Part shown: positions 8,588 through 54,349 of the stretch, one piece after another | Position numbering within the stretch: position 1 is the stretch's first letter | How the letters are laid out: each line of letters begins with the position of its first letter | NCBI GenBank assembly: GCA_964446585.1 | Contig: CAYUPI010000004.1 | Span: 124,177 to 188,176, forward strand | DNA: 64,000 bases | DNA from: an uncultured Verrucomicrobiota bacterium | GTDB taxonomy: Bacteria > Verrucomicrobiota > Verrucomicrobiia > Limisphaerales > UBA8199 | Direction of reading: 5' to 3' | Program-made: the position numbers and the translations under genes | Notes under the pieces: generated by a model | Told to the model about the DNA's origin: nothing | The model's database searches: none | Seen by the model: the letters and a program-made list of their open reading frames with translations, nothing else

Positions 8588-8998
8588 TCATCGGGTCAGG
8601 CCGGTCGAAGGCTTCCAATCTTTATCTTTGATTTCGATCAGATAGCAGCCTGCATTATTTCCCATCAAATTCTCGGCATTGTGCTGTTCGGGCGGTGCCC
8701 AGCCCATTTCGCCGGCTTTAGCGTTCTCGAACGTTTCTTTCCCGTCCGGCGTGATGATCCGGAGCTTGGCATCGGTCAGCATGATATAAAGATGCGCCGG
8801 ATGCGTGTGCATACCAAATCCGCAAACGTCCTTCTCCGAACCCGTGTGGCACTCAATCACTCGAATCTTATCATTTTCGAAGGCGACCTTGTAAACTGCA
8901 GGTCCGTTCGAATTTGCTGCACTGCGCGGGGTATGACATCCTGCACAAACCAGGGCTAGAGCAGTGGCCGCGGCCATGACGGATGAGGCTTGACGCAT
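8588..8998 (-). CDS. Cupin-domain lipoprotein, BauB-like
   Basis: Start at ATG 8998; signal peptide with LVCAGC lipobox; cupin His motifs HTHP and EQHN; overall pattern ENDKIRVIE...LIEIK. Confidence 0.7.
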   Translation of the reverse strand: MRQASSVMAAATALALVCAGCHTPRSAANSNGPAVYKVAFENDKIRVIECHTGSEKDVCGFGMHTHPAHLYIMLTDAKLRIITPDGKETFENAKAGEMGWAPPEQHNAENLMGNNAGCYLIEIKDKDWKPSTGLTR

Positions 8999-9116
8999 GA
9001 AGCATGAATTCCGAAAAGCCAATGCCGAAAAATCTGACCAACGGCGTCCCTCTGGGTGTTGGAGTTTTGGCTTCGTTATTCCTTCGTCATTGGTCATTCG
9101 GATTTCGTCATTCATA
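8998..9116. repeat. Gene-less degenerate heptamer array with inverted arms (AATGACG type)
   Basis: Minus strand reads gaatgac-gaaatcc-gaatgac-caatgac-gaaggaa-taacgaa... and ends in a complementary-type arm (ttttcggcattggcttttcggaattc). It fills the gap between the preA stop and the cupin start. Confidence 0.7.
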
Positions 9117-10427
9117 TCAGGGGTGGGGCGGTATCGGTTCCATCTCGCCCTTCGCAACTCTTTCCTGGTATTGGGTCCAGGTCATTTTCAAGTCGCCGTT
9201 GGTGGGCGAGACCATGATGATGCAGTCATCAACAGGGCAGACCAGCGAACAGAGATTGCAGCCGACACAATCGGCCTCGCGGACTTTGGGGATGGGTTTG
9301 CCGGGCACGCGCCCCGGGCCCAGGCCAAAGCCGTCCGGATTGATCAGATCGATGCATTGGTGCGCGCCGTCTTCGCAGGCGATATAGCATAAGTTGCAAC
9401 CGATGCACTTGTCGTAATTGATGCGGGCGATCCGTTTGTAATTCAGGTCGAGAGCTTCCCATTTTTGCAGCGTCGGCACGGCCTTCCCAATGAGCTCGCC
9501 AACAGTCTTGAATCCCTTCGAGTCCAGATAATCGTTGAGCCCCTCGATCATGTCTTCGACGATACGAAAGCCATAGTGCATGATCGCAGTGCAGACTTGG
9601 ACGCTCGTTGAGCCGAGCGCGATGAACTCCGCCGCATCCCGCCAACTACCGATGCCACCGATGCCGGAAATGGGCAACTGGACTTCCGGGTCCTCAGCGC
9701 AGCTCTGGACCATGTTCAACGCAATCGGCCTTACCGCCGGGCCGCCATAGCCACCGTGCGTGCTTAAGCCGGCGACGAACGGTTCGGGCACCAGGCTGCC
9801 GAGATTGACCTGCGTGATGCTGTTGAGGGTATTGATCAACGAAATGGCGTCCGCGCCCGCCTTCCGGGCAGCACGCGCGACATATACGATGTCGGTGATG
9901 TTCGGCGTCAGCTTAACGATCACCGGAATGCCTGCGGCTTCCATAACCCATTCGACAATCTTCTGGGTAACCGCCGGCTGCTGGCCCACGGCCGAGCCCA
10001 TGCCACGCTCGCACATGCCGTGCGGGCAGCCGAAGTTGAGTTCCACGCCATCGGCGCCGGCATCTGCGGAGCGCTTCAGCATCTCATGCCAGCGTTCGCG
10101 CGTATCCACCATCAGTGAGGCAATCACAGCGCGGTCTGGCCAGCGCTTCTTCACTTCGGAAATCTCGCGAAAGTTCGTTTCGATTGATCGATCGCTGATC
10201 AGCTCGATGTTATTGAAGCCAACCATCCGCATCGTGCCGACGTTCAGGGCAGCGTAACGCGACGAGACGTTGACGATGGGGTCGCCAATCGTCTTCCAAA
10301 CCACGCCACCCCACCCGGCCTCAAATGCGCGGTGACACTGGTAGGCCGTGTTCGAGGGCGGGCCCGAGGCGACCCAAAATGGGTTTGGCGATTTGATGCC
10401 GGCGAGATTGATGCTGAGATCGGCCAT
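9117..10427 (-). CDS. preA: NAD-dependent dihydropyrimidine dehydrogenase subunit PreA
   Basis: NPFWVASGPP, NNIELISDR, ELNFGCPHGM, VKLTPN, THGGYGGPAVRPIAL; two C-terminal 4Fe-4S motifs (CIGCNLCYIAC, CVGCNLCSLVCP). Confidence 0.95.
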   Translation of the reverse strand: MADLSINLAGIKSPNPFWVASGPPSNTAYQCHRAFEAGWGGVVWKTIGDPIVNVSSRYAALNVGTMRMVGFNNIELISDRSIETNFREISEVKKRWPDRAVIASLMVDTRERWHEMLKRSADAGADGVELNFGCPHGMCERGMGSAVGQQPAVTQKIVEWVMEAAGIPVIVKLTPNITDIVYVARAARKAGADAISLINTLNSITQVNLGSLVPEPFVAGLSTHGGYGGPAVRPIALNMVQSCAEDPEVQLPISGIGGIGSWRDAAEFIALGSTSVQVCTAIMHYGFRIVEDMIEGLNDYLDSKGFKTVGELIGKAVPTLQKWEALDLNYKRIARINYDKCIGCNLCYIACEDGAHQCIDLINPDGFGLGPGRVPGKPIPKVREADCVGCNLCSLVCPVDDCIIMVSPTNGDLKMTWTQYQERVAKGEMEPIPPHP

Positions 10428-10430
10428 AAA

Positions 10431-10588
10431 AAACTTTCAAATTCCAACATCCACCAACTAGATAAGCCTCAAGTCGCAAGGCACACAAAACCTCCAAAAT
10501 CCAACAACCAACTTCCAGAAAAAGCTCAAATCACAAGATCCAAAACAGATGGTTCTCGTTTGGCTGTTGGAAGTTGGAGGTTGGAGCT
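10431..10588. repeat. Heptamer array plus inverted arm downstream of four-helix-bundle gene 1
   Basis: CCAA-type units from 10431 to about 10545 (ttcaaat-tccaaca...ctccaaa-atccaac-aaccaac-ttccaga), then TTGG-type units at about 10559-10588 (tttggct-gttggaa-gttggag-gttggag). Confidence 0.75.
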
Positions 10589-11086
10589 TCATTTTTGTTT
10601 GGGTCGTTTGCGGAATATGCTGGCGAAAATCATGAGCAACTCGTGGCCTTCGCGATACAGCTTACAGGCTTCTTCGACCAAAGGGGCCTCGGAGGCGGCA
10701 ATCGTCCGCAGAAAATATTTCGTCTCCTTGGCCTCTTTAACGCAGCGACTGATCGAGAAAAAGAAATTCCCTTTCGAAAAGCTTTCGTTTGCTTCGAGAT
10801 AGTTGGCGCCGACGCTCGTGCCGCATCCAACGTTCTGATCTATCAGCCTGTTGTTCGTCGAGTCGTGAAGAATCCTCTTCGAGAAGCGCACAATCGCCTC
10901 GCCGAAATCTGGAGTCCGTTCTTCCAAATCGAACTCATGCCGCGGTTGGCCGGTTCCGTTAGGCCCCTCGTTCAACAACCAGCCCAATGCAAGCGGCTCC
11001 GGATAAGGGACTTGCTCACCAGCCTTTTTTGAAGCTTGAAGCTTGGTTTTTGTCTGGCTGTTGGCTGTTGGGTGTTGAAGTTTCAT
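10589..11086 (-). CDS. Four-helix-bundle protein (TIGR02436 / 23S rRNA IVS protein-like)
   Basis: DLEERT..FGEAIVRF, LIDQ..GCGTSVGANYLEA and KEAKETKYFL motifs. The ATG overlaps the preT stop (ATGA, 11083-11086). Confidence 0.85.
   Translation of the reverse strand: MKLQHPTANSQTKTKLQASKKAGEQVPYPEPLALGWLLNEGPNGTGQPRHEFDLEERTPDFGEAIVRFSKRILHDSTNNRLIDQNVGCGTSVGANYLEANESFSKGNFFFSISRCVKEAKETKYFLRTIAASEAPLVEEACKLYREGHELLMIFASIFRKRPKQK
11030..11082. repeat. Heptamer array at the 5' end of four-helix-bundle gene 1
   Basis: Minus strand acttcaa-cacccaa-cagccaa-cagccag-acaaaaa-ccaagct-tcaagct-tcaaaaa. Confidence 0.75.
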
Positions 11087-12543
11087 TTCACTTGCCGCGC
11101 GTATTGTTCCTCCAACTCCCCCACCCTTATCGGCCCATCGAACCCGGACCCAATTGGTGGCCCGCCTTTCACACCGTATCGCGACGGCTGGATCGGGCCG
11201 GAAATTTTTTGCCCGACGAAAAAAGCGTGAATGCCGCGCGCGGCTTTTTTGCCCTCGGCGACGGCATTGACGACTTCGCGGCCGCCATTGGCGCAGTCGC
11301 CGCCCGTGAAGACATGGGGAAGGGAAGTCTGCCCCGAGTCAGCTCGGTGAACCACCACTCCCTGTTTGTCCAGCTCCAGGTCAGAAAAGAGCTTCTTCAA
11401 CAGGCCAACCTGCTTCTGCTCGCCGATGGCTTTAATGACCATGTCGAACGGCTCGACCCAGTCGGTGCCCGGCAGAACCTGCAGCTTTCCGTTTGTGCTG
11501 GCCGTTCGAGCGAGCTTGAGCCCGGTCACGTGGCCGGTGTCGTTCGAGAGAATTTCCACTGGAACTGCATGGAAGATGAATTCGCAACCATCCGCCTTGG
11601 CCATCTCTTGCTCGAATTCGTAAGCCGGCATTTCTTCCCGGGTCCGCCGATAGATGAGCACCGCCTTCTCCGCCCCCAGCCGCTTGGCCTGGGTAACGGC
11701 GTCAATCGCCGTGTTGCCGCCGCCGATTACCGCGACTCTGTTGCCAACTGGCACCTGGTGCAGCGGCTGCGCGTGAATCTGTTCGATGAAATAAAGGGCC
11801 TCGACTACCTCGGGCAAATCTTCGCCCGCGATATTCATCCGCGCGCCGCCGCCGAGTCCGAAGCCGATAAAGATCGCATCAAACTTCTTCTCGAGTTCCG
11901 CGATGGTTATGTCGCGGCCCACCTCGACGCCACAGCGAATTTCCACGCCCAAATCCTGGACCATCCGGACTTCAAGGAGGCTCGTCTCCGGCTTCATTTT
12001 GTAGTAAGCAATGCCGTAGGTGTTCAGCCCGCCAGCCTGAGGTTTCTTTTCGAAGACCACGGCCTGATGGCCGAGCTGCGCCAGCTCGGCGGCGCAGCCC
12101 AGGCCCGCCGGACCGCCACCCAGGATCGCCACGCGCTTGCCGGACTTCCGTGCGGGCGGGTTGAACAGCTGCACTCCGTTATCATAAACGTGGTCCGTCG
12201 CGTGCCTCTGCAGCCTGCCGATTTTGACCGGGTCGCCCTCGCGATCCAGCATCACGCAAGCCCCCTCGCATAGCACCTCCGTCGGGCATACGCGCGCGCA
12301 ACTGGCACCAAGAATGTTTGCGCTGAGAATCGTGCGCGCCGCTCCGGTCAAATTCCCCGTCGTGATTTTCTTAATGAAAGAAGGGATGTCGATGCCGGTC
12401 GGACAAGCATGAATGCAGGGAGCATCGAAGCAAAACAGGCAGCGGTTGGCTTCGATGATGGCTTCATGGGGAGCATAGCGCGGAGCAATCTCGGCCATGT
12501 TGGCCGCGGCAGCTTCCGCGCCTAACTGGGGATTGATCGGCAT
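11083..12543 (-). CDS. preT: Dihydropyrimidine dehydrogenase subunit PreT (GltD-like FAD/Fe-S oxidoreductase)
   Basis: RCLFCFDAPCIHACPTGIDIP, CARVCPTEVLCEGAC, GGGPAGL, VIGGGNTAIDA; upstream of preA in the same orientation; ATG at 12543 chosen. Confidence 0.9.
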   Translation of the reverse strand: MPINPQLGAEAAAANMAEIAPRYAPHEAIIEANRCLFCFDAPCIHACPTGIDIPSFIKKITTGNLTGAARTILSANILGASCARVCPTEVLCEGACVMLDREGDPVKIGRLQRHATDHVYDNGVQLFNPPARKSGKRVAILGGGPAGLGCAAELAQLGHQAVVFEKKPQAGGLNTYGIAYYKMKPETSLLEVRMVQDLGVEIRCGVEVGRDITIAELEKKFDAIFIGFGLGGGARMNIAGEDLPEVVEALYFIEQIHAQPLHQVPVGNRVAVIGGGNTAIDAVTQAKRLGAEKAVLIYRRTREEMPAYEFEQEMAKADGCEFIFHAVPVEILSNDTGHVTGLKLARTASTNGKLQVLPGTDWVEPFDMVIKAIGEQKQVGLLKKLFSDLELDKQGVVVHRADSGQTSLPHVFTGGDCANGGREVVNAVAEGKKAARGIHAFFVGQKISGPIQPSRYGVKGGPPIGSGFDGPIRVGELEEQYARQVK

Positions 12544-12632
12544 AAAATGGCTGACAAGCAGATCAGAATAGGGGAATTCTAAGTGAAATAAAAGAAGCAA
12601 TAATAGGATTTTAGGACAACTCAGGACCAGGA

Positions 12633-13877
12633 ATGACGACACCCCTAAATCCGAAACGGACAGTCGCTGAACTCAAGGAACTGCGCAGCCTCACTTCCGA
12701 TGAGAACGGAGCGCAGCGGGTCGCCTTTACGCCGACGTGGGTCAAAGCGCGCGATTGGCTGAGAGAGAAACTCAGGTCACTGCCCGTTGAGAGCCACATC
12801 GATGCCGCGGGCAACTCCTGGACGACGCTCGCCGGTGAATCCGAGCGGGCGCTACTGATCGGCGGGCATATCGATTCGGTGCCGAACGGCGGCTGGCTCG
12901 ATGGCTGCCTCAATCTACTCGCCGGGCTGGAGATCCTGAGGCGAGTCAACGCGGAGTACGGAGGGAAGCCGCCGGTCACCGTCCGGCTGGTCGATTGGGC
13001 GGACGAGGAAGGCGCGCGGTTCGGCAAGAGTTTATTTGGCTCCTCGGCCTGTTCCGGAAACCTGAACATGGACGAGGCCCGTGTTCTAACGGACAAGCAA
13101 GGCATCCGCTTGCCGGACGCGCTCAAGAGTGTCGGCGTGGACTTCGAGCGAGTGAAGGAGAGCGGCCGGGAGCTCAAGAATGCGGGTGCCTATATCGAGT
13201 TGCACATCGAGCAAGGGCCGGTGCTGCTGGATTTGGAGCTGCCGCTGGGCGCGGTGCTGGGCACGTTCGGCGTCGAGCGGCACGCCATCACCTTTCATGG
13301 CCAGGCGGCGCATTCAGGCAGCACGCCGATGAACCGTCGCAAGGACGCCTTCCTGGCCGCGGCGAAGATAAGCCAGGAGATTTACCGCATTGCCGAACGG
13401 AGCAAGGGAGGAGTTTGCACTATCGGCTCCTGCACGACCAAACCCGGCATTGTGACGAGCGTCGTCGAAGAGTGCCGCATCACGCTCGATCAGCGTCACC
13501 TGGACGCGGCGGCCCTGGCGCGGATGCTGCAGGAGGCCAAGGCTGCAAGCGAACGCTTCGCGAAGGAAGGCAACGTCGGAGTGTCGTGGGAGCGGTTGTG
13601 GCAAATCGAGCCGGTGTTGTTTAATCCGGATTTGATAGCTTTCTGTTCGGAGGCGATAACTGAAACGTGCGGCAAAACTCACCGGCTCCCTTCGGGCCCG
13701 CTGCATGATGCCGCCGAGGTGGCGCGCGCCGGCATCCCGACGGTGATGACGTTCGTCCAAAGTCTCCACGGGATCAGTCACAACAAGATTGAAGATACCA
13801 AAGAAGAGCACCTCGAGCTCTGCGTGGCCGCATTCGATAAACTAGCGGACAAGGCGATGAAGTGGGTGGAAGGTTGA
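12633..13877 (+). CDS. M20 Zn amidohydrolase, probable beta-ureidopropionase / N-carbamoyl-amino acid hydrolase
   Basis: GGHIDSVPNGGWLDG, DEEGARFG, ELHIEQGP, HSGSTPM, SGPLHDA; divergent from preTA. Confidence 0.85.
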   Translation: MTTPLNPKRTVAELKELRSLTSDENGAQRVAFTPTWVKARDWLREKLRSLPVESHIDAAGNSWTTLAGESERALLIGGHIDSVPNGGWLDGCLNLLAGLEILRRVNAEYGGKPPVTVRLVDWADEEGARFGKSLFGSSACSGNLNMDEARVLTDKQGIRLPDALKSVGVDFERVKESGRELKNAGAYIELHIEQGPVLLDLELPLGAVLGTFGVERHAITFHGQAAHSGSTPMNRRKDAFLAAAKISQEIYRIAERSKGGVCTIGSCTTKPGIVTSVVEECRITLDQRHLDAAALARMLQEAKAASERFAKEGNVGVSWERLWQIEPVLFNPDLIAFCSEAITETCGKTHRLPSGPLHDAAEVARAGIPTVMTFVQSLHGISHNKIEDTKEEHLELCVAAFDKLADKAMKWVEG

Positions 13878-14535: not shown

Positions 14536-14892
14536 ATGCCCGCCAAACTGAGCACACACGTCCTGGATACGGCACATGGTTGCCCGGCGGCTGGCATGCA
14601 GATCGAGTTGTGGTCGCTCGCTGGCGGGACGCCGAGGCTGTTGAAAACAGCGCGCACGAACAGTAATGGCCGGACCGATCAAGCGCTGTTGGCCGCCGAT
14701 GAAATCAAAGCCGGGTCGTACGAACTCATATTCTTCGTGGGCGACTACTTTGCAAGCAAGAGTGCTTCAGTGCCGAGCACGCGTTTCCTGGATCGGGTCC
14801 CCGTCCGCTTCGGTATCGCCGATCCAACTGCTTCCTATCATGTGCCGCTGCTGGTGTCGCCCTGGGCCTACAGCACGTATCGCGGGAGTTGA
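14536..14892 (+). CDS. uraH: 5-hydroxyisourate hydrolase
   Basis: [38 protein letters not shown] (transthyretin-like signature). Confidence 0.95.
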
Positions 14893-14908
14893 GCACATTC
14901 GTCCACGG

Positions 14909-16390
14909 ATGAGCGCCGCAAAGCCAGCCTCGGAATGGGGAAAGATGGCCACTCGGGTTATGCGGCGCCTTGAAGAGCTTGGCCAAATCAGCGACGAACC
15001 GGGCCGGCTGACGCGCACCTTTTGCTCGCCTGCGATGCGCCGCGCGAATGACCATGTCGGTTCCTGGATGCGCCAAGCAGGCATGACGATCCGTCAGGAT
15101 GCCATCGGCAATCTGGTCGGCCATTACCCCGGTCAAAGTGCGAAGTGCGAAGTGCGAAGTGCGAAATGCGAAGTCCATCCTCCTCCGTCAGAAGCACTGC
15201 GGAGGACAATAAGTCCATCCTTCTCTGTCAAGAGCGCTGCGGGGGACAAGAAGTCCAAAGTTCTGCTGCTTGGCTCGCATCTCGATACGGTCCGGGATGC
15301 GGGCAAATTCGACGGCGCTCTGGGCGTGCTGGTAGCCATTGCCTGTGTCCAGAAGCTCCACGAGCGTGGCAGCCGGCTGCCATTTGACATTGACGTCCTC
15401 GGTTTTGGAGATGAGGAAGGCATCCGGTATTCCACAGCCTGCCTGGGTAGCAGGGTCCTCGCGGGAACTTTCGACCGACGCGATTTGAAACGCCGAGACG
15501 CCAACGGCGTCACCATGAGGGAGGCCATCCGCGAATTCGGCGGACGCCCGCAAGCATTGAGCGGCGCGCGGTTCGATCCCGAACGGTTGCTCGGGTACGC
15601 CGAGATCCACATCGAACAGGGACCTGTGCTGGAGCAGCAGAATCTCGCGGTCGGCGTCGTGTCCGCCATAGGCGGTCAAACCCGCGCTCGGATTTCGTTC
15701 ACTGGGCAGGCCGGACATGCCGGGACCACTCCGATGAACCTGCGCCGGGATGCGTTGTGCGGTGCCGCCGAGTTTATTTCGGTAGTCGAGGCGCTCGCTC
15801 GGAAACAGCGCGGGCTGGTGGCTACTGTCGGCGAGCTCAAAGTGCTCCGCGGCGCTTCCAATGTGATTCCCGGCCAGGTCCAGCTCAGCCTGGACGTGCG
15901 GCATGCGGAAGACGCCAGGCGGCGGGCCGCGTGCGCCGAATTGAAAAAGCGTGGCCGGGCCATCGCTTCTGAAAGAAAATTGCGATTTGAATGGAAACCG
16001 GTCAGTGAGTCACCTGCCATTCGGTGTGATCGATGGCTCTCTCAACTAATGAAGGAAGCCGTGCAGCGGCAGCAGGGCTCGGCCGTGAGTTTGCCCAGCG
16101 GGGCAGGGCATGACGCGGCGGCCATTGCGGCTATCGCCCCCGTAACTATGCTCTTCGTCCGGTGCAAGAACGGTCTCAGCCATCATCCGGCGGAATACGC
16201 CTCGAAAAGGGACGTGGGCATCGCTATGGCCGTCCTGGTTGATTTTTTGCGGGGGCTGGCAAAGAGATTTGGAACGTCCTGCGAGTCACCGACAGTGCGT
16301 AGCCGTGGACGTCAGTCGGCGCTGAAAAGCACGCGGGAAGAAGGTCCGCCGACTCACGTCGGCGGCTACAATTCAGCCCGCGATTTGTGA
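14909..16390 (+). CDS. allC: Allantoate amidohydrolase with repeat-derived internal insertion and C-terminal extension
   Basis: DAIGNLVG, GSHLDTVRDAGKFDG, DEEGIRY, EIHIEQGP, HAGTTPM, SGAGHDA, SHHPAE; lies between uraH and allB. Confidence 0.88.
   Translation: MSAAKPASEWGKMATRVMRRLEELGQISDEPGRLTRTFCSPAMRRANDHVGSWMRQAGMTIRQDAIGNLVGHYPGQSAKCEVRSAKCEVHPPPSEALRRTISPSFSVKSAAGDKKSKVLLLGSHLDTVRDAGKFDGALGVLVAIACVQKLHERGSRLPFDIDVLGFGDEEGIRYSTACLGSRVLAGTFDRRDLKRRDANGVTMREAIREFGGRPQALSGARFDPERLLGYAEIHIEQGPVLEQQNLAVGVVSAIGGQTRARISFTGQAGHAGTTPMNLRRDALCGAAEFISVVEALARKQRGLVATVGELKVLRGASNVIPGQVQLSLDVRHAEDARRRAACAELKKRGRAIASERKLRFEWKPVSESPAIRCDRWLSQLMKEAVQRQQGSAVSLPSGAGHDAAAIAAIAPVTMLFVRCKNGLSHHPAEYASKRDVGIAMAVLVDFLRGLAKRFGTSCESPTVRSRGRQSALKSTREEGPPTHVGGYNSARDL
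15136..15256 (+). repeat. AAGTGCG heptamer array followed by an imperfect 40-bp tandem duplication inside allC
   Basis: AAGTGCG x4 plus AAATGCG at 15136-15170; units 15171-15210 and 15211-15250 match at 33/40 positions by manual alignment. Confidence 0.9.
16299..16369. repeat. GTAG-type REP inverted pair inside the allC 3' end
   Basis: gtagccgtggacgtcagtcggcg (16299-16321) vs reverse complement of 16347-16369, gtagccgccgacgtgagtcggcg: 20/23 identity. Confidence 0.85.
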
Positions 16391-18593: not shown

Positions 18594-18635
18594 AAGCCCG
18601 AGGTCCGAAGTGCGAAATGCGAAGTCCGAAATCCG
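18594..18635 (+). repeat. Heptamer array, AAGTGCG family
   Basis: AAGCCCG AGGTCCG AAGTGCG AAATGCG AAGTCCG AAATCCG just after the allE stop. Confidence 0.85.
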
Positions 18636-25868: not shown

Positions 25869-25910
25869 GTTGGGATCGTGCCATGATTCCTCCCTGATGG
25901 CTGATGATTG

Positions 25911-25933
25911 CGCCGACTGACGTCGGCGGCTAC
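25911..25933 (-). repeat. Solo GTAG-type REP
   Basis: Reverse complement gtagccgccgacgtcagtcggcg, 22/23 identical to the 16347-16369 arm. Confidence 0.85.
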
Positions 25934-25954
25934 TGCATTAGTCAATATCGAACG

Positions 25955-27301
25955 ATGTCATACCGAGCCTGGTTCAAGTGCATCAACCTGGACTGCGGAG
26001 CTACGTATCCGCTGAACCGGATCGTGTACGAGTGCGGGCGCTGCCAATCCCTGCTCGAGGTCCAGCACGACCTGGCGGCGCTGGCGCGTCGCGACGCCAA
26101 GGGTTGGATGAAACTCTTTGAAGATCGCTACAAGAGCAACCTCTGGCCCTACGGCTCGGGAGTGTGGGGCAAAAAGGAATGGATTCTGCCCCAGATTGAC
26201 AACGACAACATCGTCTCGCTGTACGAAGGCGGAACGAACCTCTTCTGGGCCGAACGCTTCGGCAAAGTTATTGGCGTCGAGGACCTCTGGATTAAGCTCT
26301 GCGGCAACACGCACAGCGGTTCTTTCAAAGACCTGGGCATGACCGTTCTCGTTTCCCAGGTCAAGCAGATGATTTCCGAGGGCGCGCCGATCAAAGCGGT
26401 CGCTTGCGCATCCACCGGCGACACCTCGGCCGCCCTGGCCACTTACTGCGCCGCAGCCGGCGTTCAATCCGTCGTCCTGCTTCCGCGCGGTAAGATCTCG
26501 ACAGCTCAACTGGTTCAACCCATTTCAAGCGGCGCGCTCGTGCTCTATCTCGACACGGACTTTGATGGATGTATGCAATTAGTGCGCGAGATCACCAAGG
26601 ACGATTCGATTTACCTGGCCAACTCTATGAACTCGTTGCGGGTCGAAGGCCAGAAGACCGTCGGCATCGAGATCGTGCAACAGTTCGATTGGGAAGCGCC
26701 AGATGTCATCGTTATTCCCGGCGGCAACCTGGGCAATGTCTCTGCTTTGGGGGCGGGGCTAATGATGATGAAGCAGCTTGAACTCATCGCGAAGCTGCCG
26801 CGTATTGTCGTCGCCCAGGCAGAGCGCGCCAACCCGCTTTATCGCTCGTATCTTCGGAATTACTCCGCTTTCGAGCCGGTGCCGGCCCGGAAGACGCTCG
26901 CCAGCGCGATCCAGATCGGTAATCCGGTCAGTTTCCAGAAGGCTGTCCGCACGCTCAAGCAATTCAACGGTATCGTCGAGCAAGCCACGGAAGAGGAACT
27001 GGCGGACGCCGCAGCGCTCGGGGATCGCACCGGAATGTTTAATTGCCCGCACACGGGCGTGGCCCTCGCTGTGCTGATGAAATTAATCAAGACCGGCAAG
27101 ATTGATTCGGCTGAGCGCGTGGTAGTCATCTCGACCGCGCACGGATTGAAATTCGTCGAGATGAAGGTCAAGTATCATCAACGCGAACTGGAATTCGCAT
27201 CCCGACACGCCAATCAGCCGATTGAACTACCGGCGCGGCTGGACGCGGTCAAAGACGCCCTGCAGAACGCTCTGCAGGCCAAGAGGGACGTCGAAGTTTA
27301 A
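25955..27301 (+). CDS. thrC: Threonine synthase
   Basis: [17 protein letters not shown] (PLP Lys), [58 protein letters not shown]. Confidence 0.93.
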
Positions 27302-27357
27302 GGGGTCAAACGCGGCCGCACCTAGCCAAGGACTTCTGCAAAAGCGCAATGTTCTCG

Positions 27358-27525: not shown

Positions 27526-28533
27526 TTACTTCGGCGCGGCTTTGGTCGGCGGTGCGTTGGTCTCTTTCGCCTCTCTTACCTCCTTTTCCTGCAGCTCGAT
27601 GTTGCGCGCAAGGCGGTTCTTCAGGTCGGCGTACATTTCGTTCGTGACGGCCGCGATGTGCGCCCGGGCTTCAGCGAATCGCTCCGCATGTAACTTGAGG
27701 CGGGCAAAATGCAGGTACACGCCTTCCCGCTCGATCTCGTCATGGGCAATCTTCAGCGCGTTCGTCCAGGCGTTGAGCGCGTCCTCGGTGCGCGTCGGCT
27801 TGATGCCGTAATAGGTCTGGGCGACGTCCGACGCCAGCGGAAAATTCGTTGGGTCGAGTTTCAGCGCCTTGGCGTAAAGTTGTAACGCTTTGTCGAAGAC
27901 TTGCTGCTCCGTGATTCCGTAGAACTCCTTCGCGTCCTTTCGGAAAAGATAAACCGTCGTCCCAAAGTTATGATAATACACCGGCTCAAGCGGGTTCAAT
28001 TCGATTGCTTTAGCGTAATACTCGAACGCCTTTTTGACCGGGCCGTCGTGGCCGTAGATGTTTGCGAGGTTGTTGTAGACCGCTGGATTGTTTGTATCCA
28101 GTTCGAGCGCCTTTTCCAGTTGCTCCTGGGCGGCCGCTTCGTCGTGAATGTCGCCCAGAAAGCTCGCGTAGGCGACGCGCGCGCGGACATGTTCCGGATG
28201 CCGCTTGATGAAATCCTCGTATCGCTTGCGAATGGGGTCGAAGCGCTCATGGATGCGCCGGTTCAGATCCGCCGGCTTGGCACCGGCGCCTTTGGCGGCG
28301 AATTCGTTGTTCTCCTGAATCCATTTGTCAACCTCGGCCTGGACGGCGTCGTCATCCTCGACCAGTTCGGTGTATTCTAGTTCCACCGCGTCGCTGGGCG
28401 CGGCCGGCACGCCTGCCGTTCCCTGGGCGGCCTGTGCCCGCCCACCTTCCGTCTGCCGCACCACGTTGGTGACCACCGCCGGGTTGTTAGTCACCAGCAC
28501 CGCTCCCAACACCGCCATCAGAAAACTGTTCAC
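27526..28533 (-). CDS. Exported tetratricopeptide-repeat protein
   Basis: Hydrophobic N-terminus; TPR-like LEKALELD..NP.VYNNLA and YAKAIELNP.EP.YY.NFG. Confidence 0.8.
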   Translation of the reverse strand: MNSFLMAVLGAVLVTNNPAVVTNVVRQTEGGRAQAAQGTAGVPAAPSDAVELEYTELVEDDDAVQAEVDKWIQENNEFAAKGAGAKPADLNRRIHERFDPIRKRYEDFIKRHPEHVRARVAYASFLGDIHDEAAAQEQLEKALELDTNNPAVYNNLANIYGHDGPVKKAFEYYAKAIELNPLEPVYYHNFGTTVYLFRKDAKEFYGITEQQVFDKALQLYAKALKLDPTNFPLASDVAQTYYGIKPTRTEDALNAWTNALKIAHDEIEREGVYLHFARLKLHAERFAEARAHIAAVTNEMYADLKNRLARNIELQEKEVREAKETNAPPTKAAPK

Positions 28534-31781: not shown

Positions 31782-31785
31782 CAAA

Positions 31786-48533: not shown

Positions 48534-51500
48534 TCACGCTGCCTGCATTGCTTTGAGCGATCGGGAGCGCCACAGATAGTAGATGGCCGGATAGACCAGC
48601 AGTTCCATGGTGGTCGAAGTGACGACGCCGCCGATCATGGGTGTGGCGATGCGTTTCATCACGTCCGCGCCAGTGCCGTGACTCCAGAGGATCGGCATCA
48701 GTCCGGCGATGATGACTGAGGCGGTCATGGCTTTGGGGCGGACGCGCTTGACCGCGCCGTGATAGATGGCGTCGCGCAAGTCGGTCGCATGGCGCATGAG
48801 ACCCTTCTTCTGCCAGTCGGCGTATGCGAGGTCCAGGTAGAGGAGCATGACGACGCCGGTTTCGGCATCGAGCCCGGCGAGGGCAATGATGCCAACCCAG
48901 ACCGCCACGCTCAAATTGTAGTGGAGCAGGGCGAGCACGCCGAAAGCGCCCACGAGTGAAAATGGCACGGCCAGCATCACGATGGCAGTCTTGATGGCCG
49001 AGCGCGTGTTGAGGTAAATGATTAAGATAATGATGAGCAGCGTGAGCGGAATGACGATCATGAATCGTGCCTTGGCGCGGAGCATGTATTCATATTGGCC
49101 GCTCCAGAAGATGTTATAGCCGCCGGGTAGGTGGATGCGGCCGTTCGCGACGGCTTCGTCGACGGCGCGTATGGCCATCTGGACGTAGGTGCCGATATCG
49201 ATGCCTTTGACGTCCACATAAATCCAGGCATTAGGCACCGCGGCCTCGCTCTTGATTCCCATCGGAGCATGGACGATTTCGATGCGGGCTAACTGGCCCA
49301 GCGGGACCTGAGGACCCGAGGGCGTTGGCACAATGATTTCGCGCAACGCCTCCGGACTTTCGCGAAAATCGCGGCTGTAGCGAAGGTTTACGGCATATCG
49401 TTCGAGTCCTTCGACGGTCGTTGTGAGCGCCATGCCGCCCAGCGCCACCTCGAGTACGTCCTGGACCGCTCCGATCGTTAAGCCGTATCTGGCAATGGCA
49501 TCACGGTCGATTTGGAACTCGATGTAATTGCCGCCCATTGTGCGCTCAGCAAACGCGCTCAAAGTGCCCGGCACGGTCTTAACCACAGCTTCAATCTCGG
49601 ATGCCACCCGCTCCAACTCGGCGAGGTCGGGGCCGGCGACCTTGATGCCGACTGGAGTCTTGATGCCCGTCGCCAGCATGTCGATGCGCGTCTTAATCGG
49701 CATCGTCCAGGCATTGTTCAAACCCGGAATCTGAACAGCGCGATTCATCGCTTCCGTCAACTCATCGGGCGTGCGGCGGCGATGAGCGATGATGTTCCCA
49801 GAGTCATCGAGGATTTCCACTTTCGGCCATTCCTCTTCGGGCTTGAGCATGATGGTGGTTTCAATCATGTCGAAGGGCGCGGGGTCGGTTGCCGTTTCAG
49901 CGCGGCCGATCTTGCCGAAGACTTGATGGACTTCGGGGAAGCGGCGTAAGATTTTGTCGGTGGTCTGGAGGACCTCGCGTGCTTTGGTGGGTGAGATCCC
50001 CGGAAAAGTCGTGGGCATGTAGAGCAGGTCGCCTTCATAAAGAGGCGGCATGTATTCGGAGCCGATGTTTTGGTATGGGAAATATTTCCCAATCTTGAAG
50101 GCCAATTCCTTGGTTCTGCCATCGGGCAACAGTTTGGCGGCGAGCGCATTCCAGGGCAGGAAGGTCCAGATAATGAGGGCAGCAGCGGTGGCGATGACAG
50201 GCCAGCGCCACTTGATTACAAAATCGATTGCCGGATGGTAGAGCCAAATGAGGAAACGGTTGATCGGATTTTTCTCCTCGGCGGGAATCTTCCCGCGAAT
50301 GAAAAAGCCCATGAGCACGGGTGCGAGCGTGATCGATAGCAGCGCCGCCGCAGCCATGGAATAAGTTTTGGTGAAGGCCAGAGGCTTGAAGAGGCGGCCT
50401 TCCTGCGCCTGGAGTGCAAACACGGGAATGAAGGAAACGGTGATTACCAGCAGAGAGTAAAAGAGCGTGGGCCCGACCTCGATGGAGGCATCACGGATTA
50501 TATCCCAATGGGGCTTTTTGCCCTGGTCACGCTCCATGTGCTTATGAGCGTTTTCGATCATGATGATGACCGCGTCCACCATGGCGCCGATGGCGATCGC
50601 GATGCCGCCGAGCGACATGATGTTCGAGCTGATGCCCTGCTCGAACATGACGAGAAAAGACATGAGGACGGCGACGGGCAGGATGATGATGGCGACCAAC
50701 GCGCTGCGCAGATGCAGGAGGAAAGCGATGCAAACCAGCGCCACAACAAGGCTTTCCTCGATGAGTTTCTCTTCAAGAGTCCTGACTGCGCGTTGAATGA
50801 GCGCGCTGCGGTCGTAGGCAATCGTGTATTTCACATTCGCGGGGAGGCCCTTCATAGCGGTGTCGAGCTTTCGTTTGACGTCGAGGATAACCTGCCGGGC
50901 GTTTGCGCCGTAGCGAACGACGACAATGCCGCCGACGGTTTCACCCTCGCCGTTCAGTTCGGCGATCCCGCGCCGCATATCGGGACCGAGCTCGACATTG
51001 GCGATCTGGCCGAGGAGAATCGGAACTCCCTTGTCGCCGACGCCTACGGCGATCTTGCGGAGATCGTCAAGTTTTTGAACGTAGCCACGCACGCGGAGGA
51101 TGAATTCCTTTTCGGCCAGCTCGATCGAGCGCCCGCCGACTTCGCCATTGCTGCGTTTGACGGCCATAGCGACCTCGGAAACAGAAAGGTTGTAGGCGCG
51201 GAGCCGGGCGGGATCTACGGTGACCTGATACTGTTTCACGAAGCCGCCAATGGAAGCGACTTCGGAAACGCCTTCCACAGAAGCCAACTGGTAGCGGAGA
51301 TACCAATCCTGCATGGAACGGAGTTCCGCGAGGTCGCGGTTGGTGGAGTTGATGGAATACATGAAAGCCCAGCCGACGCCAGTGGCATCCGGGCCGAGGC
51401 TGGGGGAGACGCCCGAGGGCAGGCGACCGCTCAAGCCGCTGAGATATTCGAGCACGCGGCTGCGCGCCCAGTAGGGATCGGTGCCGTCGGCGAAGATGAC

Positions 51501-51782
51501 ATAGACGAACGAAAAGCCGTAGAAAGAGTAGCCACGAACTACCTTCGCGCCCGGCACGGAAAGCATTTTGGTGGTAATGGGATAGGTGACTTGATCCTGG
51601 ACGATTTGGGGTGCCTGCCCCGGCCATTCGGTGTAAATGATGACCTGGACATCCGATTGGTCAGGGATGGCGTCCAGGGGGATGTTCTTGAGCGCGTAAA
51701 CGCCGCCCAGCACCAGAACAATCGTCCCTAGCAGGACGATAAATTTGTTCCTGAGGGAGAAATCTATAATGCGCTGGAGCAT
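48534..51782 (-). CDS. cusA: Heavy-metal RND efflux permease, CusA/SilA type
   Basis: PLDAIPDQSDVQVI, LGPDATGVGW, NIMSLGGIAIAIGAMVD, MPPLYEGDLLYMPTTFPG, WTMPIKTRIDM, KRVRPKAMT. Confidence 0.93.
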   Translation of the reverse strand: MLQRIIDFSLRNKFIVLLGTIVLVLGGVYALKNIPLDAIPDQSDVQVIIYTEWPGQAPQIVQDQVTYPITTKMLSVPGAKVVRGYSFYGFSFVYVIFADGTDPYWARSRVLEYLSGLSGRLPSGVSPSLGPDATGVGWAFMYSINSTNRDLAELRSMQDWYLRYQLASVEGVSEVASIGGFVKQYQVTVDPARLRAYNLSVSEVAMAVKRSNGEVGGRSIELAEKEFILRVRGYVQKLDDLRKIAVGVGDKGVPILLGQIANVELGPDMRRGIAELNGEGETVGGIVVVRYGANARQVILDVKRKLDTAMKGLPANVKYTIAYDRSALIQRAVRTLEEKLIEESLVVALVCIAFLLHLRSALVAIIILPVAVLMSFLVMFEQGISSNIMSLGGIAIAIGAMVDAVIIMIENAHKHMERDQGKKPHWDIIRDASIEVGPTLFYSLLVITVSFIPVFALQAQEGRLFKPLAFTKTYSMAAAALLSITLAPVLMGFFIRGKIPAEEKNPINRFLIWLYHPAIDFVIKWRWPVIATAAALIIWTFLPWNALAAKLLPDGRTKELAFKIGKYFPYQNIGSEYMPPLYEGDLLYMPTTFPGISPTKAREVLQTTDKILRRFPEVHQVFGKIGRAETATDPAPFDMIETTIMLKPEEEWPKVEILDDSGNIIAHRRRTPDELTEAMNRAVQIPGLNNAWTMPIKTRIDMLATGIKTPVGIKVAGPDLAELERVASEIEAVVKTVPGTLSAFAERTMGGNYIEFQIDRDAIARYGLTIGAVQDVLEVALGGMALTTTVEGLERYAVNLRYSRDFRESPEALREIIVPTPSGPQVPLGQLARIEIVHAPMGIKSEAAVPNAWIYVDVKGIDIGTYVQMAIRAVDEAVANGRIHLPGGYNIFWSGQYEYMLRAKARFMIVIPLTLLIIILIIYLNTRSAIKTAIVMLAVPFSLVGAFGVLALLHYNLSVAVWVGIIALAGLDAETGVVMLLYLDLAYADWQKKGLMRHATDLRDAIYHGAVKRVRPKAMTASVIIAGLMPILWSHGTGADVMKRIATPMIGGVVTSTTMELLVYPAIYYLWRSRSLKAMQAA

Positions 51783-51788: not shown

Positions 51789-51860
51789 TGGAGCGTCAGG
51801 AGCGTGGAGCGTGGGGAGCGTCAGGCGGGAGCGTGTCTGCTAAGCTCGCACGCTCTGACG
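51789..51860. repeat. GAGCGT-type array and inverted arm at the 3' end of four-helix-bundle gene 2
   Basis: tggagcg-tcaggagcg-tggagcg-tggggagcg-tcaggcgggagcgtg, then inverted cacgctctgacgc at 51848-51860. Confidence 0.8.
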
Positions 51861-52275
51861 CAGCTACGATATACTCTACAGGGACCTCGCGCAGCTCACA
51901 GCCCGCGCCACACCATGAAGCGGCATCGTTCATCATGTTGGACAATTGCCCACAAATGTGGTCGTATTGATCGCTCAGTTTCGTCTGTGTGTCGGCAACC
52001 AGGTATCCGCAATTAAGGGCGAAGCTCAGATGGACCTCGGTTTCGGCGGCCTCAGTGTCACTATCGCTGAGTTTACTGACAAACGCCGCTTGATACCGGC
52101 GCTTACGCCAAGCTTCTGCGATGTTCGTGCAAACGGACCTGGAGGATCTCCGTATCTGATCAATCAATGAGAACTTTTCCTCCGACGGCCAAGTGCGGCT
52201 TAGTCGGAAAATCTCCATTGCTGAGTCATAGGCGAGTCTGTAAACCCGCAGTTCCTTATAGTCTTTGGCTCTCAT
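51796..52275 (-). CDS. Four-helix-bundle protein (TIGR02436 / 23S rRNA IVS protein-like)
   Basis: DYKELRVYRLAY, EEKFSLIDQIRRSSRSVCTNIAEAWRKRRY, SKLSDSDTEAAET, ALNCGY; tail LREVPVEY. Confidence 0.92.
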   Translation of the reverse strand: MRAKDYKELRVYRLAYDSAMEIFRLSRTWPSEEKFSLIDQIRRSSRSVCTNIAEAWRKRRYQAAFVSKLSDSDTEAAETEVHLSFALNCGYLVADTQTKLSDQYDHICGQLSNMMNDAASWCGAGCELREVPVEYIVAASERASLADTLPPDAPHAPRS

Positions 52276-52386: not shown

Positions 52387-54321
52387 CTACCGTCCCCGCG
52401 AATGCTGCCTCCGCCAATTCGCCTCGGCCGTTTCGCCGTGGTTTACCTTGGTCGTCTCCACAAGGTCCATCTCACACTTTGGACAATTGCCCGGTTGGTC
52501 CGACACCACGTCGGCATGCTCGGCCATCGGACAGGTATAAAGTCTAGAAGGCATTGTCATCGCAGAGCCGCCGGCCTGTTTCGAGGCGGAGCTTGGGCGG
52601 ACCATGACGGGAATCAGGGTCATTCCGCAGCGCGGACACTTGCCCGGCTTGTCCCGATGGACGTCGATGTGTTCGTGCATCGGGCAGGTGTAGTACTCCA
52701 ACTTCCCGCCCGGTTGGATGCGCGCGAGGATTTCGCGGCCAACCGGCACGAGAGTCATGCCGCACAGGGGACATTTGCCCGCGTGATTGTATTCCAGCGA
52801 GACGTGTTCAGGCATCGGGCAGATATAGACGACTGGCTCGGCATCGGAGGCTGGGGGATTAGTGCCTGCGCCCGCCGCGACGGTCGGCATAACCGGCGCG
52901 GTCGGTTGAAGTACTTCTCCCGGCGCGCCGGGGCGCTGCATTTTTTGGATTGCTTCCCGTAACTGGCTCTCGGAATCGAGCATGAACTGGCCGGAAGTAA
53001 CCACCTTTTCCCCTTCCTTGAGTCCGACTAATACCTGGTAAAAGCCATGTTCTGCGGCAGCGCCAAGGCTTACGGTGCGAGGCTCGAAGCGCCCTCCCGC
53101 CAGAGCGACGAAGACCGTGTTCTTTTCCCCACTGCGAAGCACGGCCGAATCCGGTACCAGAACCTCGGAGGTGGCCAGTTCGCACGTCATCTCGACTGTC
53201 GCGTACATGCCGGGCTTAAGGAAATAACCGGGGTTGTGGAATTCCATCCGCACCCGGGCAGTTCGGGTCTTCTCATCTACTGTTGGGTAAATATAGGTCA
53301 CGCGCCCGCGGAACTTCGTGTCGGGCTGCGACGCCAGGCTCACGACCGCCTCCTGGCCAAGCCGGATGAAGGGCAAATCCTGCTCATAGACCTGCGCCTG
53401 GATCCAGACCGTGGCGAGATCAGCCAGCCGGTAAAGTTTCATGCCCGGCTCGACCATCTGGCCTTCAACGACCATTTTCTCGACAACTATGCCGTCGCGC
53501 GGCGCATTCATCCGGAGAGTCTTTTTCGGAGTCCGGCTGCGTTCCAACCCGGCGATCTGGTCCTCCGAAATGTCCCAGTATCGCAACTTGGTCATGGAGG
53601 CCGTTTTGCGTAAATCCGCAGCGATCCCGTCCTGGTTCGTCGAGGAGCCGAGCGTCAGGAGATATTCGGTTTGCGCGAGGTAGAGCTCGGGCGAATAGAT
53701 CTCGAACAACGGTTCACCGCGGTGCATTTGCTGGCCGGTGGCGTCCACATAAAGCTTTTCGATCCAGCCGCGGAACTTGGTGCTGACTTCCGACAGCGCG
53801 GTTTCGTCGTAATCAAGCACGCCAACGGTGCGGATGGTCCTCCGCAAGGGCCCCCGTTCGATCAAGGCGGTGCGGATACCCATGTTCTGAGTGGTGACGG
53901 GATCGATGGTAATGGTTTGTGAAGAGCTTCTGCTCGCCTCATCTTCATAGACCGGCACCATTTCCATTCCCATGGAATCCTTGCCCGGCGTCTGTCGAGC
54001 TTCACCGGGCATCATCGTGGACTTGTAAAATTTGATTTTGCGTTCGCCGGCGGGAGCCGCCGCCGCCGCCAGGGTATTCTGGCCCTGTTTTCGGATGGGG
54101 GTGAGCTTCATGCCGCAGATGGGGCAGTTGCCGGGTTTGTCCTGGATGACCTGAAGATGCATTCCGCAGGTGAAGAGGGTTTGGGTTGTCTCGCGCGCGC
54201 CTGAGGCCGCAACGTTGTCGCCGCGGCCACAGCCGGACAGCCATACCGCGGCGCTGCCTGCGATGCCGAGAGTAAGGAGAATTATCGCGTTGAGTTTCAC
54301 GGGCTTGAATTGAAAATTCAT
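52387..54321 (-). CDS. cusB: RND periplasmic adaptor, CusB-like, with multiple heavy-metal-binding domains
   Basis: GWIEKLYVD, LYRLADLATVW, VTYIYPTV...TRT, LKPGMY, VVTSGQFMLDSES; four C(P/G)M...CP.C(G/E)M modules plus YKSTM...KDSMGMEM. Confidence 0.9.
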   Translation of the reverse strand: MNFQFKPVKLNAIILLTLGIAGSAAVWLSGCGRGDNVAASGARETTQTLFTCGMHLQVIQDKPGNCPICGMKLTPIRKQGQNTLAAAAAPAGERKIKFYKSTMMPGEARQTPGKDSMGMEMVPVYEDEASRSSSQTITIDPVTTQNMGIRTALIERGPLRRTIRTVGVLDYDETALSEVSTKFRGWIEKLYVDATGQQMHRGEPLFEIYSPELYLAQTEYLLTLGSSTNQDGIAADLRKTASMTKLRYWDISEDQIAGLERSRTPKKTLRMNAPRDGIVVEKMVVEGQMVEPGMKLYRLADLATVWIQAQVYEQDLPFIRLGQEAVVSLASQPDTKFRGRVTYIYPTVDEKTRTARVRMEFHNPGYFLKPGMYATVEMTCELATSEVLVPDSAVLRSGEKNTVFVALAGGRFEPRTVSLGAAAEHGFYQVLVGLKEGEKVVTSGQFMLDSESQLREAIQKMQRPGAPGEVLQPTAPVMPTVAAGAGTNPPASDAEPVVYICPMPEHVSLEYNHAGKCPLCGMTLVPVGREILARIQPGGKLEYYTCPMHEHIDVHRDKPGKCPRCGMTLIPVMVRPSSASKQAGGSAMTMPSRLYTCPMAEHADVVSDQPGNCPKCEMDLVETTKVNHGETAEANWRRQHSRGR

Positions 54322-54349
54322 AAAGAGTCGGGTCCAGTGCAGGTGCGGG

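Follow-up and report, generated by a model that had tools for sequence, protein, structure and literature searches.

We analysed a stretch of 64,000 nt from an uncultured Verrucomicrobiota bacterium (contig CAYUPI010000004.1 of assembly GCA_964446585.1; hereafter the window), in which preT and preA, the genes for the two subunits of a dihydropyrimidine dehydrogenase, are separated by an insert that encodes a four-helix-bundle protein (Table 1). The relatives of its PreA protein put the window in Verrucomicrobiota, and the genes of the locus all lie on the (-) strand. The initial annotation, made from the letters of the window alone, had placed 655 bp between the two genes and had the ATG of the insert overlap the preT stop. 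Both observations hold: the gap of 655 nt extends over 10428..11082, and the stop and start codons share an ATGA. The insert has a GC content of 49.2%, compared with 59.0% for preT and 59.4% for preA. On its coding strand, we detected neither a sigma-70-like promoter nor a terminator-like site within the insert. A scan of 9000-12800 against Rfam returned no rRNA, no other family and nothing for the repeat arms or their hairpin, and PADLOC gave no defence-system match for the cassette, the term used here for the open reading frame (ORF) together with its arms.

Table 1. Features of the preT-preA locus and of a second cassette in the window (window coordinates).
Feature	Position	Strand	Remarks
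preT-like gene, GltD-family NAD-binding/Fe-S subunit of dihydropyrimidine dehydrogenase	11083..12642	(-)	PF14691 Fer4_20 7e-37 and PF07992 Pyr_redox_2
ATGA overlap	11083..11086	(-)	preT stop TGA 11085-11083 and cassette start ATG 11086-11084
Arm module A1 (sense)	11044..11088	(-)	two heptamer runs around CCAGACAAAAA; encodes first ~15 ORF codons
Four-helix-bundle ORF, 165 aa	10589..11086	(-)	TIGR02436 match
Arm module A2 (sense)	10550..10594	(-)	begins at ORF stop, again as AAATGAA
44-aa small ORF, candidate relay frame	10458..10592	(-)	ATG overlaps four-helix-bundle stop (ATGA)
Arm module B1 (inverted)	10482..10537	(-)	predicted partner of A2 (inner hairpin)
Arm module B2 (inverted)	10425..10480	(-)	predicted partner of A1 (outer long-range stem); end runs into preA ATG
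preA, NAD-dependent dihydropyrimidine dehydrogenase subunit PreA	9117..10427	(-)	NCBIfam NF006183, 646 bits, cut-off 335
Cassette 2, 159-aa ORF	52275..51796 (cassette 51783-52386)	(-)	TIGR02436 90 bits

The insert is bounded by inverted heptamer-periodic arms

A heptamer-periodic module of ~45-56 nt is present four times at the insert, twice in sense (A1 and A2) and twice inverted (B1 and B2). Each module contains two short heptamer runs (period 7 and 2.4-3.3 copies in Tandem Repeats Finder, which called arrays at 11055-11077 with 3.3 copies, 11029-11045 with 2.4 copies and 10566-10586 with 3.0 copies), and the repeat units are CCAACAG, CTCCAAG and CTCCAAC together with their complements. The first ~20 codons of the ORF had been described as one heptamer array; the periodicity is there, though it belongs to the two separate runs of A1. 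The second same-sense array reported after the ORF stop corresponds to A2, which forms with A1 a 45-nt direct repeat with 36/45 identical positions (80%). B1 and B2, two tandem units of 56/57 nt that are 73% alike, make up the long inverted array, which had been thought to end 3 bp before the preA start and in fact runs into the start codon. The two ends of the insert are imperfect inverted repeats, as first proposed, with 26 matches over 35 aligned columns and one gap between A1 and the reverse complement of B2. When the 3´ region was subjected to 1000 dinucleotide-preserving shuffles as a chance test, the direct score of 45 compared with a shuffle maximum of 23 and the inverted score of 30 with a maximum of 27, such that 0/1000 shuffles reached either. 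A profile of the family arms (nhmmer) matched A1 at E 1.2e-10 and, across the window, only the cassette and one other site, weakly, at 31785-31862. In the minimum free energy fold of the whole insert (z = -2.0), A1 pairs with B2 in an outer stem enclosing everything else and A2 pairs with B1.

The array-encoded start of the protein evolves unlike the rest. In leader codons 1-22, synonymous sites have diverged about ten times less than those of the core (pS 0.07 vs 0.50, ratio ~1.3), and the leader 'MKxQxPTSNxQxSSKxQA' is kept across the subfamily to which the window ORF belongs. The module is equally conserved in its non-coding copies, that is in A2, B1, B2 and hairpins without an ORF. Together, the low leader pS and the conservation of the non-coding copies indicate that the constraint acts on the nucleic acid and not on the peptide. 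Compared with window 10428-10594, the corresponding region of the closest non-identical relative, which occupies the same junction (685-923 of locus L079), is longer: it has further sense-array units and one more stretch that starts in ATGA. Gain and loss of units thus alters the arms much faster than the ORF changes.

The insert is an addition to a tightly coupled junction

We fetched 78 loci around PreA relatives and compared the 58 Verrucomicrobiota-type loci that have both preT and preA. As the initial annotation had stated, the two genes are usually adjacent (38/58); 14 loci have spacers of 60-200 nt and only six carry a four-helix-bundle ORF. About 10 of the 14 spacers are ORF-less periodic hairpins whose two arms are inverted tandem arrays, unrelated in sequence to those of the window (units AATGACG, TAATCG, CGGCCT/CGGTCT and CGCTAATCTC, and a CCCTCTCCCATC palindrome). 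Among the 58 loci, the window subfamily is found at the junction in L001, L002, L009 and L012, and another four-helix-bundle subfamily, with GTCGGGG/CCCCGAC arms, in L034 and L038. When loci found in metagenomes are included with the PreA-anchored ones, the ORF recurs between preT and preA in at least 12 loci. Synteny of preTA had been suggested as the check on an insertion, and the comparison leaves that reading in place: the ORF is not conserved at the junction without arrays, which flank it at every preTA junction that holds one.

The closest loci without the ORF indicate what the junction was like. In six of these empty sites, the sequence reads ...GGAGGAAA-TAA/TAG-N-ATG, with the preT stop 1 nt before the preA ATG and a GGAGG within the last preT codons. 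At the filled preT-preA sites of the window subfamily, by contrast, RTGA is found at the 5´ junction in 8/8 cases. Given RTGA in filled and TAA/TAG in empty sites, the stop and start appear to come with the element itself. Because the ORF is missing from most preTA loci and the same cassette is found at unrelated junctions (see below), we conclude that it is an inserted element, as proposed at the outset, and not a pathway gene. Read in this way, the loci demonstrate an insertion relative to the ancestral, tightly coupled preT-preA junction. The contig that carries the 99%-identical P0001 (L161) matches the window at 100% over 3971 nt; it is the same sequence and thus carries no information on filled/empty polymorphism.

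A palindrome of another kind was seen at the same junction in L007 and L008. It is ~185 nt long (ccctcaccccggccctctcccatc...gggagagggtcagggtgaggg), lacks a four-helix-bundle gene and carries a frame of 61-64 aa, which opens in an ATGA at the preT stop and extends as far as the preA ATG.

The same unit occurs at other operon junctions and in other lineages

ORF and arms occur as one unit at many operon junctions, in sense. Including 80 further loci added by a metagenome scan, the ORF together with the arm module (heptamers around CCAGAGAA) was found at preT|preA, preA|mmsA, other gene|mmsA, DUF1553-like|DUF1501, prpC|aldehyde dehydrogenase (prpC|mmsA) and unknown|peptidase M23. In a neighbour-joining tree (no bootstrap), the preT|preA cassettes were not monophyletic. 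A six-frame profile search showed that 9/9 four-helix-bundle ORFs in PreA-anchored loci, as well as 6/6 second copies, are co-oriented with the anchor. Neighbour genes that could be identified are in sense with the cassette, whose start codon usually overlaps the upstream stop. ORF-less "solo" hairpins of the same module exist as well; they lie at the next operon junctions in L001, L009 and L012, with 2-3 module hairpins in each locus within 9 kb.

In Verrucomicrobiota and Cyanobacteria, genes of this protein family are generally accompanied by inverted periodic arms. For 69 homologue loci, the 5´ flank was aligned to the reverse-complemented 3´ flank in a Smith-Waterman inverted-repeat test; the score exceeded the 99th percentile of shuffles in 53/69 loci, and the cognate arm was the best partner of all 69 in 25 loci, with ~1 expected. 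This test replaced RNAduplex energies, with which the comparison of cognate and non-cognate arms gave p = 3.5e-9 but the energies were implausibly large and discrimination was poor, the arrays resembling each other. Significant arms were also detected for 7/10 ORFs of other subfamilies. Of seven cyanobacterial plasmid copies examined, five have inverted arms (GCAGGGGA/TCCCCTGC), all from cultured organisms: Nostoc punctiforme pNPUN02, Nostoc MS1, N. flagelliforme, Tolypothrix and Leptolyngbya. Co-orientation with both neighbours was likewise seen for 5/7 of the plasmid copies, showing that the orientation rule is not absolute.

Two loci have unusual layouts. On plasmid pOSC7112.02 of Oscillatoria nigro-viridis PCC 7112 (L170, ~1320-2050), long G-rich arrays (GGGGAGAGTGGG...) on both sides of the four-helix-bundle gene are direct and not inverted, and the gene runs antisense to the two annotated genes beside it, so that the layout departs from the usual one. 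The metagenome-assembled genome contig DATHQS010000216.1 (L160, 3960-6660) has the order prpD-prpB-prpC, four-helix-bundle gene, aldehyde dehydrogenase, four-helix-bundle gene, amidohydrolase. Its two cassettes belong to different subfamilies, with arms of the CTCCAAG and the GTGATGA type, and occupy successive junctions of one operon.

The window itself contains a second cassette. Cassette 2 lies between the genes for a CusB/CzcB-like adaptor (54360..52387) and a CusA/CzcA pump (51782..48534), and its arms, GAGCGTG upstream and CACGCTC downstream, are predicted to form a long-range stem of ~45 bp (z = -2.6). Its ORF continues across the 3´ arm to a stop 13 nt before the ATG of the pump gene. 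Two ORF-less hairpins were also noted in the window. The first (~8998-9116, (-) strand) consists of AATGACG and AATCCGAA units and their complement, unlike the cassette arms; it begins immediately behind the preA stop (cTGAtATGAATGACG) and extends to the ATGs of the following gene, a 189-aa ORF that in reality probably starts at the lipoprotein-like MRQASSV.... With this hairpin after preA, one operon has a cassette and a solo hairpin at successive junctions. The second (27356-27478), composed of CGAATGA arrays and inverted ATTCGTC arrays with a predicted stem, lies between the convergent genes 25904..27301 (+) and 27526..28533 (-).

The insert encodes a conserved four-helix-bundle protein

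The insert ORF matches the NCBIfam model TIGR02436, "four helix bundle protein", with 43.4 bits (cut-off 24), while its Pfam PF05635 score of 27.8 bits is below the gathering score of 33.8; the listed homologues all carry a precomputed PF05635 match. More than 1300 homologues were found, most of them at ~60% identity and from soil and freshwater metagenomes, and 2131 representative clusters match the query at E <= 1e-3. Among 2.9 million viral contigs, only five distant relatives were found, all leaderless. In the AlphaFold2 model, a monomer, helices span residues 54-70, 79-100, 105-132 and 134-159, all with pLDDT>90. This core (residues 54-159, 10610-10927) is preceded by the array-encoded leader and an N-terminal extension (residues 1-53) that are predicted to be disordered. 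An alignment-profile search matched PDB 2RLD at 1.7e-16, and Foldseek with the predicted monomer returned 2RLD (TM-score 0.89), 2GSC (0.82) and the Avd proteins of diversity-generating retroelements (DGRs; 4DWL and 8UBE, 0.67); the S23p-family structures 2RLD and 2GSC, crystal entries with five chains each, thus rank ahead of Avd in both the structure and the profile searches. Between the window and L079, dN/dS of the core is ~0.10. The four-helix-bundle gene, with its S23p/intervening sequence (IVS)-protein/Avd-like fold, is real and under selection.

To our knowledge, no function is known for the PF05635/TIGR02436 family outside DGR Avd, and we know of no answer to why the intervening sequences of rRNA genes carry such an ORF, a question open since the 1990s. 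Avd contacts structured RNA in the DGR complex. By analogy, the most likely guess for the protein described here is that it might bind its own structured arms.

Reading frames across the 3´ region

A 44-aa ORF that the initial annotation did not mention begins at the stop codon of the four-helix-bundle ORF. Stop contexts of this kind are common, with ATGA or GTGA at the end of 41/84 family ORFs and of 17/20 in the leader subfamily. At 14/18 subfamily loci, a frame of 24-62 aa that starts from the ORF stop ends within -17..+12 nt of the next ATG, and an independent public gene caller predicted one such frame, on the P0076 contig. In L034 and L038, as in cassette 2, it is the four-helix-bundle ORF itself that crosses the 3´ arm and ends beside, or just within, the start of the gene that follows. 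Such frames could act as a relay for ribosomes, an idea that the ATGA/GTGA stop context supports and that solo hairpins without a frame weaken.

We also considered a reading of the TTGGAG/CTCCAA arms as Shine-Dalgarno and anti-Shine-Dalgarno sequences. As a general rule it was rejected, fitting only the window subfamily, because the polarity is reversed in cassette 2 and in the GTCGGGG-armed cassettes.

Gene neighbourhood and other repeats in the window

The annotated neighbours of the locus are a CoA-acylating methylmalonate-semialdehyde dehydrogenase (MMSDH), a hydantoinase/carbamoylase-type amidase, an OHCU decarboxylase, an M20 peptidase and an amidohydrolase, and the neighbourhood is a pyrimidine/purine catabolic cluster. 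The 189-aa ORF and a 416-aa neighbour ORF gave no family match. The listed preT ORF has a GTG start (MSSFLVLSCPKILLLL...), and its first ~33 codons (window 12544-12642) have no counterpart in relatives. Since alignments to the relatives start near residue 33, the true start is probably later than the listed GTG, most likely at the internal Met of MPINPQL....

One-sided arrays of period 7 or 8 are scattered over the window, at 1763-1790, 13873-13997, 15136-15174, 18604-18635 and 21013-21043, and further at 29907-29943, 31785-31862, 41078-41105 and 59432-59471 (units including AAGCGTGG x11, AAGTGCG x5.6, CAAAACC x4.4, GTTGAGA x4 and CGTGAAA x3.7). Most are in short spacers just 5´ of start codons and have no inverted partner, and some may overlap called ORFs. 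A 40-nt unit is repeated 2.2 times (83% matches) at 15170-15257, directly after the AAGTGCG array and within the 14666..16390 ORF call (M20 peptidase family). Two non-periodic palindromes, one at 61886-61976 with 29-nt arms that are 97% complementary and 33 nt apart (CTGTAGGAGCCGACGTAAGGAGGCTCTGA...), the other at 5450-5565 with GC-rich 36-nt arms that are 83% complementary and 44 nt apart, may represent a different repeat family. A CCAAC/GTTGG-rich spot at 34557-34738 proved to be the Pro/Thr/Asn-rich part of a secretin-like gene, unrelated to the cassette.

A probable promoterless cassette at an operon junction and its alternatives

We consider it probable that the insert is a promoterless, hairpin-bounded cassette, similar to IVSs and to MITEs (miniature inverted-repeat transposable elements), which occupies the stop/start junction of an operon and uses operon transcription and translational coupling. 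According to this model, the promoter of the host operon would transcribe the cassette, and termination followed by reinitiation, at the ATGA shared with preT, would provide for translation of the four-helix-bundle ORF. Pairing of A1 with B2 and of A2 with B1 in the transcript would bring the preT stop beside the preA start. Ribosomes on the overlapping frames of preT, the four-helix-bundle ORF and the 44-aa ORF would open the stems and be delivered to within 30 nt of the preA ATG, keeping preA expressed. The unit could have spread by means of a trans-acting enzyme or, as a simple alternative to transposition, by recombination between arm copies of different junctions.

Several observations weigh against this interpretation. 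The 44-aa frame crosses A2, the loop and B1 but ends 30 nt short of the preA ATG; the relay ORF is absent or partial in 4/18 cassettes; and a spanning frame is present in only 4-6/13 solo hairpins, being absent or partial in 7-9/13. As the arrays are poor in stops in all frames, an open frame alone is weak evidence. The fold statistics are modest, with 2/20 shuffles folding as well as the whole insert, and mismatches in the arms do not bear an RNA-specific signal (62 G.U vs 68 A.C). With G.U no commoner than A.C, selection on an RNA stem is not demonstrated and the arms look like inverted repeats at the DNA level; according to the fold model, they will still pair in the transcript. No transposase, integrase, tyrosine recombinase or reverse transcriptase was found among the annotated neighbours on both sides, a scan that did not cover the ORFs at ~5000-5700. 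A possible target duplication, 'aaaggTAA', is seen in L012 and L081 only, with nothing recognisable in the window and five other filled sites, and no recent copies were found, the nearest non-identical cassette, L079, having only 80% protein identity. Finally, intergenic regions of the window are rich in heptamer arrays without a four-helix-bundle gene, as is known in other phyla (PMC4692102, PMC4679880). Since such gene-less arrays are common, some of the arm growth may be local slippage and not transposition.

Strong purifying selection on the ORF, the precise position of cassettes and solo hairpins between the stop and start of co-directional genes, and the long predicted stems could also describe a regulator selected by the host. 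In that case, a domesticated hairpin and its protein would adjust the flanking cistrons in ratio or stability, for instance by RNase III cleavage, by protection of the 3´ end of the upstream mRNA or by sequestration of the downstream ribosome-binding site, and the protein would regulate itself by binding the periodic stem. The TTGGAG repeats of the 3´ arms put a GGAG ~9-13 nt before the downstream ATG at several loci of the window subfamily, and the related Avd is part of the DGR ribonucleoprotein reverse-transcriptase complex (PDB 8UBE title). We nevertheless regard an intercistronic regulator as unlikely, given its patchy presence at the same junction of close relatives and a junction that works without a cassette in 38/58 loci. 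In addition, the arm sequences are unrelated between lineages, the GGAG feature is missing in other arm types, including that of cassette 2, and the arms show no excess of G.U over A.C.

It is also conceivable, but quite improbable, that nothing was ever mobile, the arms having formed where they are, through slippage of the polymerase and local inverted duplication, around an old, vertically inherited and often lost gene. Period-7 arrays are indeed abundant in the intergenic regions of the window, many without an inverted partner; L079 differs mainly by array units gained in its 3´ region; target-site duplications and recent copies were not found; and length-variable heptamer arrays have been described in Xanthomonas and Nostoc (PMC4692102). 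An origin in place does not sit well with the finding of the same module (heptamers around CCAGAGAA) and the same ORF subfamily at no fewer than six unrelated junctions (>=6), with preT|preA cassettes that group with cassettes of other junctions and not with each other, with two subfamilies that have different arms at the same junction in different lineages, or with an insert composition that differs from the flanks.

The position of the ORF between both subunit genes, its co-orientation, its coupling by overlap, the purifying selection acting on it and its recurrence at preT|preA would suit a role in the PreTA dihydropyrimidine dehydrogenase pathway, as its accessory or third subunit. We give this explanation very little credence: the ORF is missing from most relatives, homologues are found in efflux, methylcitrate, peptidase and DUF1501 operons, and what defines the family are rRNA intervening sequences and the Avd proteins of DGRs. 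The synteny data bring it close to refuted. An orphan Avd gene left by a DGR that lost its reverse transcriptase and its template/variable repeats can be dismissed as extremely improbable despite the fold and family shared with Avd (4DWL, 8UBE, TM 0.67) and the rank of PF05635 as the commonest DGR-associated Pfam (PMC10053308), since no reverse transcriptase lies among the annotated neighbours, the sole repeats are the short periodic arms, only the five distant relatives turned up in viral contigs, and the structures that match best, 2RLD and 2GSC, are of S23p proteins from outside DGRs.

Beyond the hairpin-bounded cassette in the window, we tentatively raise a wider proposal, which we think has some chance of being right but would not bet on. 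Four-helix-bundle genes with short-period inverted arms might together constitute a single class of mobile or self-propagating cassette, widespread and so far unrecognised, that colonises operon junctions and, as a special case, rRNA helix loops. The protein would be a pentameric arm-recognising factor, the RTGA that the element brings and its stop-free arms would relay ribosomes, and the 23S rRNA IVSs would be the rRNA-resident branch of the class. The large PF05635/TIGR02436 family gains here a tractable setting in which to ask what the protein binds, whether processing of the stem takes place and by what route the unit spreads. Annotation is affected as well, since subunit genes become separated by cassettes, and spurious or oddly extended gene calls arise from the repeat-encoded leaders and the small spanning ORFs.

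Comparison with known elements

Intervening sequences with an S23p ORF are present in the 23S rRNA genes of Leptospira, Coxiella, Xanthomonas and Brucella (PMC4990558). The likeness to these, already remarked on in the initial annotation, extends to the architecture but not to the rRNA location. The protein family (PF05635/TIGR02436) is the same, the insert's complementary ends form a long stem with the ORF in its loop, a promoter of its own is lacking, so that transcription would come with the host gene, occurrence is sporadic among relatives (here 38 empty, 14 spacer/hairpin and 6 cassette of 58), and ORF-less hairpins exist, as in the IVSs of Salmonella and Yersinia. IVSs, however, occupy the loop of an rRNA helix (helix 9, 25 or 45), whereas the cassette lies between two protein-coding genes, and being in an mRNA operon it is not a member of the rRNA-IVS class. 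The cassette also differs in having arms built of 6-8-nt tandem units, and its start and stop overlap host cistrons, implying translation, while the S23p protein of Coxiella is apparently not made in vivo. RNase III excises IVSs without religation; in an mRNA, such excision would have other consequences.

The MITE-like features of the cassette are its terminal inverted repeats and the lack of an own transposase, its sole ORFs being the four-helix-bundle gene and the 44-aa frame. ERIC/IRU (enterobacterial repetitive intergenic consensus/intergenic repeat unit) sequences, the Correia elements of Neisseria and REP/BIME (repetitive extragenic palindromic/bacterial interspersed mosaic element) sequences are intercistronic palindromic or MITE-like repeats that are co-transcribed with operons. 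Like these, the solo hairpins (L004, L005, L012 and L041, and window 8998-9116 and 27356-27478) are imperfect palindromes of ~100-190 nt between co-directional genes, with presence/absence variation and predicted folding in the transcript. Unlike these elements, many cassette copies hold a conserved protein gene in the loop, and across lineages the arms keep only their periodic architecture and not their sequence.

Integron gene cassettes combine a promoterless single ORF with an imperfect palindromic site, are inserted in sense and depend on an upstream host promoter. The element described here resembles them in its promoterless single ORF with a palindromic site, its sense orientation and its presumed expression from an upstream host promoter. 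It differs in having, among the annotated neighbours, no integrase/attI platform and no cassette array, and in having periodic repeats at both ends and an insertion site in an ordinary metabolic operon. With Avd (PDB 4DWL, 8UBE), the protein shares the four-helix-bundle fold and the superfamily, yet in sequence and structure it is closer to the non-DGR S23p proteins 2RLD and 2GSC. The cassette is not a DGR, as there is no reverse transcriptase among the annotated neighbours and there are neither template/variable repeats nor long direct repeats.

Intergenic heptameric simple sequence repeats have been reported with the units GGGAATC in Xanthomonas and GGGGAYT in Nostoc, and 70-75 of the heptamer pairs in Xanthomonas are convergent and able to form stem-loops (PMC4692102). 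TAACTGA heptamers are found in Beggiatoaceae and Cyanobacteria, in a study that also cites the short tandemly repeated repetitive (STRR) heptamers of Calothrix (PMC4679880). The cassette arrays are similar in their 7-nt tandem units, their intergenic position, often near start codons, their convergent inverted pairs and the variation of their length between close relatives. They differ in that their units (CCAACAG/CTCCAAG) do not form G-quadruplexes, and they enclose a particular ORF and lie directly against stop and start codons of the host. Neither paper mentions a four-helix-bundle, S23 or IVS protein in its main text, as searched by term, and in the literature, covered mainly as open access, we found no description of four-helix-bundle cassettes at operon junctions. 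The present analysis joins these two separate literatures, on intergenic heptamer repeats and on IVS proteins, and shows the ORF-in-hairpin unit at ordinary operon junctions, coupled to them by start and stop codons, in Verrucomicrobiota and in cultured Cyanobacteria.

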